Source: a virus
Lineage: Duplodnaviria; Heunggongvirae; Uroviricota; Caudoviricetes
IMG/VR virus record: IMGVR_UViG_3300025162_000019
Coordinates: 10,826-74,825 of that record
DNA length: 64,000 bases
Strand: one strand, 5' to 3'
Position 1 is the first letter of the stretch. Each line of letters opens with the position of its first letter. Below are positions 62,174-63,617 of this stretch, piece by piece. The translations under genes and the position numbers were made by a program. The notes under the pieces are model-generated. The model was not told where the DNA came from. It ran no database searches and saw only the letters and a program-made list of their open reading frames with translations.

Positions 62174-63052
62174 ATGAAATGTAAACAATGTAATAACGAT
62201 ATACCTGAAAAAAGAACATATTGTAGTGTAAAATGTAAAAGTGATTATCAAAGAGGAAAAACATTAGAAGAGATAGTAGGAACTGATAAAGCATTTTTAA
62301 CAAAAGAAAAACTATCAAAATCCTGTAGTGGTAGTAAAAATGGTAACTTTGGTAATAAATGGACAGATGAACAAAAAGAAATCCAAAGTATAAGAGCAAA
62401 ACAAGTTTATATAGATAAGCCAGAACTGCTAGTTATAGTTGGTAATAGTAATAGAGGAATAAAATGGGATGATGAAAGGAGAAATGATTTCTCTAATCAA
62501 ACTAAAGGACATAAAGGCATCATACATACAGAAGAAGCAAAAGAAAAAATAGGTATAACATCAAAAGAAAGAGCTAATAACCCTGAGTATAAAAAGAAAA
62601 TAAGAAAATCAATGGAACTTAATGGTCATTGGATACCTTTAGAAAATAAAACTGATTATGAGATATATTTTAAGAATGCCGATTGGATAGAAAAAATGTT
62701 TGATTTTATAACTGATGAAAAGCAGTTATATAAACTTAAAACATTAAAGGTATTCAACTGCAAAACTAATACAAAAGGTATAGTTCGTGATCATATGTTA
62801 TCACGGAGAACAGGATTTGAACAAAATATACCATATCAGCTTTTAAGGCATCCTTGTAACTGTCAAATACTTACACACTCTGAAAATATAAAAAAGAAAA
62901 ATGGTAGATATACAGATAAAGACAATCAAACAATAAATGAACTAATAAAAAAGATTGAAACATATGAAAAGGATTGGATGGAACAAGAAATGTGCTTAGA
63001 AATAATCAAAAACTATGAGAGGGATAATCAATGTATCTGTGGTGATATATAA
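62174..63052 (+). CDS. Putative homing endonuclease (Zn motif, NUMOD3-like, HNH-like C-terminus)
   Basis: CKQC..YCS..C; HTEE; RDHMLS..HPCNCQIL...N. Confidence 0.6.
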   Translation: MKCKQCNNDIPEKRTYCSVKCKSDYQRGKTLEEIVGTDKAFLTKEKLSKSCSGSKNGNFGNKWTDEQKEIQSIRAKQVYIDKPELLVIVGNSNRGIKWDDERRNDFSNQTKGHKGIIHTEEAKEKIGITSKERANNPEYKKKIRKSMELNGHWIPLENKTDYEIYFKNADWIEKMFDFITDEKQLYKLKTLKVFNCKTNTKGIVRDHMLSRRTGFEQNIPYQLLRHPCNCQILTHSENIKKKNGRYTDKDNQTINELIKKIETYEKDWMEQEMCLEIIKNYERDNQCICGDI

Positions 63053-63617
63053 TGGGAAAACTATATTTCACCGCAGATACCTGAAAACTCATTTAAATCA
63101 CAGCAATATTATTGGTTATTGCAACAGACCGTTCAAAGATGTTGATCATATGAATAATAGTCTTGTGAAAAACTGGAATGAAAGAGTGAAACCAGATGAT
63201 ACTATTATTGTTGATGGTGATTTTTGCTTTAAGAATACTCCTGGCGGCAAGGTCGGAGAAGGTGGTCTGGAAGCCGCAAAATACTGGATTGCACAACTTA
63301 ATGGTGAAAAGATTTTTGTCAGAGGAAACCATGATAAACACAATAGCCTGAAAACTGCTATTACTGGTATGGAAATCGTGTTTGGTGGATATAAGATGTG
63401 GGTTGTTCATAATCCCAATCATTATAATCCAGACTATGAAATAAACATTGTGGGTCATGTACACGATTTTTGGAAGATTCAGTATGCACCTATTACAAAT
63501 ATTTATAAGCCAAGAACTATTTTAGTGAATGTTGGTGTTGATGTATGGGACTTCAAACCTGTTCCTGCAAACAAGATTATAGATTTGATTTTTAAGTTTA
63601 AAAGAGAAAATATTTAA
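63052..63617 (+). CDS. Calcineurin-like metallophosphoesterase, interrupted by an 8-nt insert (63082-63089)
   Basis: ATG63052 reads MGKLYFTADT then TGA; next frame THLNHSNIIGYCNRPF..GD..GNHD..H..GHVH; joining gives FTADTH (DxH). Confidence 0.85.

Follow-up and report, generated by a model that had tools for sequence, protein, structure and literature searches.

A putative eight-nucleotide ribosome hop over a stop codon at a homing-endonuclease cassette in a phage metallophosphoesterase gene

How could a phage gene whose catalytic motif is broken by a stop codon encode an active enzyme? This question is raised by a metallophosphoesterase gene on the plus strand of the 64,000-nucleotide (nt) stretch analysed here (the window), an AT-rich piece (30% GC) of IMGVR_UViG_3300025162_000019, a 189-kb IMG/VR phage record from freshwater metagenomes. 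The first open reading frame (ORF) of the gene (ORF1, 63052..63081) begins with ATG (63052-63054), continues with GGA AAA CTA TAT TTC ACC GCA GAT and ends with the threonine codon ACC (63079..63081), the putative take-off codon; its translation, MGKLYFTADT, fits the N-terminus of the family, M-x-x-x-F-T-[SA]-D-x-H. There follow an in-frame TGA (63082-63084), which opens the gap TGAAA (63082..63086), the putative landing codon ACT (63087..63089), the first triplet of the form ACN on the 3′ side of the ACC, and then CAT (63090-63092) TTA AAT CAC. The frame entered in this way (ORF2, 63090..63617) starts with the His of D-T-H, stays open for 175 codons to its stop at 63617 and carries the body of the metallophosphoesterase (phrog_547 phosphoesterase, E 4.7e-33). 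Both ACC and ACT specify Thr and are readable by one transfer RNA (tRNA). An earlier note on this DNA had described the break from ATG 63052 (MGKLYFTAD-T, TGA, AA, T, H) and had remarked that the ORF list hides it; all codons were found as described, and the frame after the gap is that of the listed ORF 63015-63617, whose ATG start at 63015 conceals the interruption.

A skip between the two matched codons reproduces the family motif exactly, and no other reading does so. The motif, x-F-T-[SA]-D-x-H-[FL]-x-H-x-N-I-I, is uninterrupted in 26 of the 27 IMG/VR homologues and in the top protein hits. When the gene is read with the skip, all five metallophosphoesterase motifs (D-x-H, GD, GNH[DE], H and GHxH) are present in order, and the product would read MGKLYFTADTHLNHSN..., with an intact D-x-H metal site and the junction peptide LYFTADTHLNHSNIIGYCNR; the ORF without the Asp scores 20.7 bits against Pfam Metallophos_2, under the 27-bit cutoff. 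It is probable, to judge from these comparisons and those below, that peptidyl-tRNA-Thr hops from ACC to ACU and so restores D-T-H.

The nature of the interruption is apparent from an uninterrupted relative. The Logan contig L031 carries a phosphoesterase gene 79% identical to that of the window, without an intervening ORF, and reads GCA GAT ACC CAT TTC. Since CAT follows directly on ACC there, the 8 nt TGAAAACT are an insertion into the gene's 5′ end as duplicated in the cassette; the gap TGAAA is absent from L031 and from all uninterrupted homologues. Since L031 also has the same promoter layout but no intervening ORF, approximately 62108-63100 constitutes an inserted cassette, and the locus is arranged in the order old stub, endonuclease ORF, duplicated 5′ end with the insert, and gene body. 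The stub (62067..62138, plus strand; MGKLFFTSDLHLN) comprises 13 codons of the old 5′ end of the gene; homology ends after CATTTAAATCA, and the frame runs into cassette DNA and soon meets a stop. The 11-mer CATTTAAATCA, common to 62097-62107 and 63090-63100, marks the cassette junction. The ATG of the duplicated 5′ end overlaps the TAA of the endonuclease ORF (TAATG). L031 and a second contig, L032, represent alleles without the homing endonuclease gene (HEG), which amounts to a presence/absence polymorphism at one site. As far as sequence comparison can tell, a mobile homing-endonuclease cassette has entered a phage metallophosphoesterase gene behind codon 13-14. ORF2 is 78% identical to its counterpart in L031, with a ratio of nonsynonymous to synonymous substitution rates (dN/dS) of 0.12. 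Three independent studies of lakes or freshwater yielded contigs that match 63039-63198 with zero differences, which shows the 8 nt to be real DNA and excludes an assembly error. Among the DNA contigs from sequencing runs, none was seen that lacked the endonuclease or the insert.

The cassette contains a free-standing, homing-endonuclease-like ORF (62174..63052, plus strand, 292 amino acids), assigned from family motifs and same-site homologues; it is His-Me/HNH-like by motif, with NUMOD3, and its family is phrog_23051. Of 16 family members, 11 carry NUMOD3 (best E 4.6e-7); the window copy lies below threshold at 16.7 bits. Four residues, D206, H207, N229 and N238, are invariant in the family, and a predicted strand-strand-helix at 203-241 carries this Asp-His, Asn and Asn (model pLDDT, a per-residue confidence score, 80). 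HNH domains were matched weakly in fold, with Foldseek E values of 0.2 or above and VIA Z of 3.4-3.7, and there was no Pfam HNH match. The genetics is more telling than the fold. When viral and metagenome contigs were scanned with the endonuclease, about 20 homologues (29-49% identity) were found, all of them at the same site of diverse phosphoesterase genes, and each lies between a fresh gene 5′ end and a stub that ends just past the second His of D-x-H-x-x-H. In this distribution the 292-amino-acid ORF behaves as a homing endonuclease.

The copies of the target site in these cassettes form a series: (i) seven cassettes are uninterrupted, with no insert and no hairpin, (ii) four homologous or analogous cassettes have D-x-H-F-G-H broken by a single extra base after TTT, reading TTT C GG (L006:2965-3010 and L053:1462-1490), TTT C AA (L050:2189-2215) or TTT T GGG (L054:2225-2250), (iii) four have a 5-nt insert after the Thr of D-T-H, reading ACT TG ACT (L044 and L062), ACT TA ACT (L063) or ACT TA ACC (L046), (iv) L056 requires a 7-nt step (CAT TAG C TAT), (v) the window requires an 8-nt step (ACC TGAAA ACT), and (vi) two have a longer gap after the Gly of F-G-H, with a 22-nt step in L034 (GGT TAG CCTTCGGGCTAA TCAA GGT) and a 28-nt step in L057 (GGT TGA, a hairpin with a GAGA loop, GGA). 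The four single-base cassettes appear to be variants of this device in which a +1 frameshift follows UUU; in L006 and L053 the rare codon CGG stands in the 0-frame A site. The four 5-nt relatives have their insert at the Thr codon used in the window, matched Thr codons, a TGA or TAA stop and the same hairpin. In every stop-containing insert, one amino acid is specified both directly ahead of the stop and by the last codon of the insert, the pair of codons in L056 being near-cognate.

The gap in L034 resembles that of phage T4 gene 60. This locus (L034:2309-3330, from IMGVR_UViG_3300031951_000022) contains a stub (MIYFISDTHFGH), an endonuclease 49% identical to that of the window, and a duplicate 5′ end; its gap of 19 nt has matched Gly codons (GGT, and GGT then CAC), a stop and a hairpin of 12 bp whose loop is UUCG. 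The take-off site of T4 gene 60 reads GGA TAG CCTTCGGGCTATC, and the 14-mer TAGCCTTCGGGCTA is identical in the L034 gap. A second stem-loop in L034 encloses the ATG and stops 3 nt short of the take-off codon on its 5′ side.

The ORFs downstream of the hop cassettes are only 28-59% identical to one another and have retained GD, GNHD, H and GHxH; dN/dS between L062 and L063 is 0.19. These frames are, by such measures, under purifying selection. The thing that recurs is the design and not the sequence: the exact 11-mer ACCTGAAAACT had 3 loose matches against 1.85 expected, and is not a repeat beyond chance.

The second conserved component is a hairpin with a 5′ arm at 63033..63051 and a 3′ arm at 63062..63080 (both on the plus strand), the latter extending to the second base of ACC. 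The earlier note had reported a 13-bp stem with one G-U pair (63033-63045 with 63068-63080) and an extension of about 5 bp, and this stem was recovered as part of the full 19-nt arms, which are 89% complementary. The hairpin folds at -25.8 kcal/mol (z score -5.6), none of 200 shuffled sequences was as stable, and a stem of at least 18 bp ending within 4 nt of the stop is found at 0.17% of the stops in this genome. All six stop-hop cassettes have a local hairpin with the take-off codon at the end of its 3′ arm, compared with none of nine uninterrupted or HEG-less genes. When the window and four other cassettes were aligned on the Asp codon, four stem positions proved to be changed on both sides (z -4.6 to -7.7 in the five); for example, GAC and GAT are paired by G and A in the 5′ arm, and TCG, GGG and GCA are matched there as well. 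The 5′ arms sit in non-homologous sequence: in the window, a C-terminal extension of the endonuclease (QCICGDI, which the 49%-identical homologue lacks), and in the other cassettes, N-terminal extensions or the start codon. To judge from this pattern, the 5′ arms are made for the purpose. It is also plausible that the stem controls initiation, with a Shine-Dalgarno (SD)-like GGTGA (63041-63045) in the 5′ arm, the ATG in the loop and the TAATG overlap.

How might these parts work together? Ribosomes would start at ATG 63052, probably by coupling to termination of the endonuclease ORF at TAATG, because the SD is hidden by the hairpin. Ten codons would be read before the ribosomes pause, the P site being occupied by ACC and the A site by UGA; peptidyl-tRNA-Thr would then unpair, the messenger RNA (mRNA) would slide by 8 nt, and the tRNA would re-pair at the first ACN, ACU 63087-63089, after which decoding would continue at CAU. 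The free 5′ arm could pair with the 3′ arm as the latter leaves the ribosome, so that the hairpin is restored in the ribosome's wake and powers the forward movement; pairing of the exiting mRNA is supported as a forward driver of gene 60 bypassing (10.1101/2024.12.09.627546). At the DNA level, the replacement 5′ end would recreate the target of the endonuclease, and the 8 nt interrupt it there; the insert most likely serves to shield the cassette copy from cleavage by its own enzyme. This probable protection has an analogue in T4, where the gene 60 insert protects from MobA (10.1101/2022.08.31.505936, citing Bonocora 2011). That the locus is a bypass element restoring DTH had been proposed before, and the comparisons with L031, with the four Thr-stop-Thr cassettes and with the gene-60-like gap of L034, together with the covarying hairpin and the purifying selection, lend the proposal support.

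Several points weigh against such a hop. The nascent chain would have 10 residues at take-off, and short peptidyl-tRNAs are prone to drop-off. The 3′ arm would be inside the ribosome at that moment, and how the hairpin could then act is not obvious. Synonymous flanks (AC/AC, AT/AT, CTT/CTT) would be given by a 2-3-nt target-site duplication alone. Unassisted short stop-hops in Escherichia coli are inefficient, according to 10.1101/2022.08.31.505936. Finally, the paralog at 45915 is uninterrupted, as the earlier note had stated; it is 43% identical and reads MSKVLIIGDTHGQ / MIYFASDYHFNH..., and the interrupted copy therefore need not be essential.

The intact paralog also favours a quite different explanation, namely that the interrupted gene is a dead copy, in which the 8 nt are a repair scar or an immunity mutation at the cut site, nothing functional is made past the TGA, and the paralog supplies the activity. 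Staggered-cut repair can indeed yield short duplications around filler DNA. A dead copy is nevertheless unlikely: five cassettes share the design, and their downstream ORFs, though down to 28-59% identity, have kept all catalytic motifs and a low dN/dS, the upstream FT[SAG]DT stays in frame with the start codon, the hairpin covaries, and the DNA polymerase B (PolB) gene of the same genome is broken in like manner. A product might alternatively arise by termination-reinitiation or from another start (CTG 63081-63083 over the TGA, or ATG 63015), with an altered N-terminus that lacks the Asp of D-x-H. The NTGA overlaps in all three window cases (CTGA, TTGA, TTGA) and the open frame from 63015 agree with this, but L046 and L063 have TTA, no start codon, as the -1 codon that overlaps the stop, the product would lack a metal-ligating Asp found without exception in the homologues, and neither the identity of the landing and take-off amino acids nor the family N-terminal motif of ORF1 would be explained. 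We consider reinitiation or another start very improbable.

A -1 (or +2) ribosomal frameshift at ACC-UGA, giving D-T-L-K-T-H, would be in keeping with the inserts of the window (8, 8 and 11 nt), all of which are 2 mod 3. Yet the site is not slippery (a tRNA-Thr paired with ACC is unable to re-pair with UAC), the stimulatory structure is on its upstream instead of its downstream side, the strict spacing of D-x-H would be broken, and the steps in L034 and L057 (22 and 28 nt, 1 mod 3) and in L056 (7 nt) do not share this phase, so that a frameshift has very little in its favour. Hardly any more credit can be given to an intron-like removal of the whole cassette from the RNA, joining the stub (62067-62107) to the body at 63101 and making the internal copy irrelevant. 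The joined sequence would read a perfect MGKLFFTSDLHLNHSN...; yet there is no G for a 3′ splice site inside or beside the 11-nt repeat, the non-ORF sequence flanking the endonuclease ORF amounts to 66 and 48 nt only, and the internal 5′ copy, start, matched codons and hairpin, all needless for an intron, are conserved across cassettes. Rfam gave tRNAs and nothing else for the whole window at gathering thresholds, and on 61900-63700 it found no intron and no known recoding RNA even at E up to 10. An alternative genetic code with TGA as a sense codon was rejected as well: frame 0 meets TAA three codons on, and the relatives use a TAA stop.

The hop between matched codons would have two counterparts in the window, as the earlier note had held in counting this locus as the third instance; both sister breaks are real, each with a stem of 14-19 bp ending on the codon before the TGA or at the TGA, a few codons 3′ of an endonuclease ORF. 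The first (579..694, plus strand; ATG 579, stem 590-608 / 666-684, z -7.3) lies in a DHH-like gene and reads CTT TGA CGATG CTT GAT GGC, with CTT at 678-680 and 689-691. The ORF on its 5′ side (14-568) matches endonuclease PHROGs and phrog_23051, the family of the phosphoesterase-linked endonuclease. The DHH-like ORF (689-1918) had no Pfam, PHROG or Protein Data Bank (PDB) sequence match, and it was assigned to its family from motifs recognised by eye (DxD, D, DHH and GGH). The second (7085..7173, minus strand; ATG 7173, stem 7138-7125 / 7108-7095, z -3.9) interrupts the PolB motif YxDTDS, reading ...VLY, ATT (7098-7096), TGA, AG and ATA (7090-7088), followed by GAT ACT GAT TCA; the ORF on its 5′ side (8262-7195) matches the HNH endonuclease family phrog_559 (E 7e-68). 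The PolB relatives L040 and L041 read AYGDTDS without interruption. Such a break in the catalytic motif of a polymerase speaks for a working device.

The PolB gene is in three pieces, cut by two endonuclease ORFs (GIY-YIG-like, 10528-9824, and HNH-like, 8262-7195). In another PolB relative, 53% identical (L042:2400-2520), ...ILLHN stands directly before TDSLYV; this resembles an intein's C-terminus, placed at the very DTDS site that carries the 8-nt insert in the window. Among the approximately 20 tRNA genes of the window is one for tRNA-Ile with anticodon UAU (45564-45654), unusually long for a tRNA at 91 nt; an AUA-reading phage tRNA-Ile could matter for the PolB element, with its take-off ATT and landing ATA. 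A genome-wide scan, in which a stop, an ORF in another frame and a stem of at least 13 bp were the criteria, recovered the DHH-like and PolB cases. The scan candidates at genome positions 100462, 128279 and 172852 were ordinary gene boundaries.

Taken as a whole, the comparisons incline us to the view that homing endonucleases of uncultured phages spread with very short obligatory hops (5-11 nt including the stop), driven by a hairpin with the end of its 3′ arm on the take-off codon. In this phage the hops would affect three genes, one of them for DNA polymerase, and at the phosphoesterase site there would be a graded series from no insert through +1 and 5-, 7- and 8-nt hops to gene-60-like gaps of 22-28 nt.

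To our knowledge, programmed translational bypassing has essentially one natural bacterial paradigm, T4 gene 60. The window shares with gene 60 and mobA (Huang 1988 and Bonocora 2011, via 10.1101/2022.08.31.505936) an endonuclease ORF followed by a new N-terminal coding segment, a stop directly after take-off, matched codons, an upstream stem-loop and an insert in a conserved catalytic region. The host gene differs (metallophosphoesterase versus Topo2L), as does the endonuclease family, which is phrog_23051 with NUMOD3 in the window. The gap is 5 nt (an 8-nt step) as against 50 nt, and leaves no room for a gap hairpin or a mini-SD; a take-off stem-loop inside the gap, as in gene 60, is missing from the window but present in L034 (UUCG) and L057 (GAGA). 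With only 10 codons ahead of take-off, a nascent-peptide signal in the tunnel is impossible, and the hairpin extends its 3′ arm into the take-off codon, whereas in gene 60 that arm ends 9 nt upstream. The T4 cassette splits the protein in two, whereas that of the window duplicates the 5′ end of the gene and leaves a stub. Manning and Atkins (2022) found homologues of the gene 60 cassette exclusively in Topo2L, called the cassette unique and gave a shortest gap of 20 nt (10.1101/2022.08.31.505936). Full-text literature searching uncovered no description of cassettes like these in genes for phosphoesterases or polymerases, nor of any with gaps of 5-8 nt.

Other forms of recoding are more distant. 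The E. coli stop-hopping constructs (Weiss 1987 and O'Connor 1989, via 10.1101/2022.08.31.505936) have in common with the window a frame-independent move of peptidyl-tRNA by a few nt over a stop to a matching codon. Those hops are synthetic or adventitious as well as inefficient, whereas in the window a natural gene is concerned, the hop would be the sole route to an active product, and a conserved hairpin adjoins it. Classical +1 sites (CUU UGA C of prfB, and hungry-codon shifts) have their counterparts in L006 and L053 (UUU CGG) and in L050 and L054, where the same motif is solved by one inserted base after UUU; a classical +1 shift cannot read the insert of the window, which needs the 8-nt step. 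The byps of Magnusiomyces mitochondria, attributed to Lang in 2014, are reportedly several frame-breaking inserts with matched flanking codons in one genome, 27-55 nt in length and with internal hairpins. The window differs from these byps in not being mitochondrial, in lacking internal hairpins and in having a linked endonuclease gene.

The surroundings of the locus also contain regulatory sequences. The ancestral sigma-70 promoter of the phosphoesterase (62009..62037, plus strand) has TTGACA, a 17-nt spacer and TATAAT with a TG extension, a 12/12 match to the consensus, and a 20-bp leader hairpin (62015..62063, plus strand; -32 kcal/mol, z -6.7) is found between promoter and start. The hairpin is perfect, ends just 5′ of the start codon and includes the promoter spacer and the -10 box; an equal layout with a different hairpin sequence precedes the intact gene of L031, which has no HEG (L031:763-815). 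The 54 nt at 62006-62059 had double depth in the contig graphs, where they were joined to other contexts, and may be a repeated regulatory module. Directly 5′ of the promoter is an ORF of 176 amino acids (61475-62002) with no Pfam match; L031 has a different gene there, and contigs in runs X2 and X7 have the L031-like upstream gene joined to the promoter hairpin common to both. Two near-identical promoter-leader modules (61415-61476 and 63619-63681; TTGAC..., GTATAAGAGAAAAACAACAAAGAAAGG..., ATG), with unrelated small genes behind them, flank the locus on either side. No terminator-like site was found between 61900 and 63700. A blastn search of INPHARED phages gave no close relative, the matches being of 100 nt only, at 72-74% identity, to phosphoesterase genes of Bacillus phages.

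If the hop takes place as proposed, the locus would be part of a second and larger family of bypass elements, in another gene and with another endonuclease, whose gaps are too short for most of the gene 60 signals and whose one conserved stimulator would be the upstream hairpin that ends on the take-off codon. At about 60 nt, it would offer a minimal and easily cloned system for testing how pairing of the exiting mRNA drives ribosome sliding. Gene callers mis-annotate such genes as truncated or broken, as in the case of the ORF from 63015. The natural series that extends from a +1 shift to a 28-nt gap bears on the origin of bypassing and, if it is true, would show how the bypass of T4 gene 60 could have evolved.

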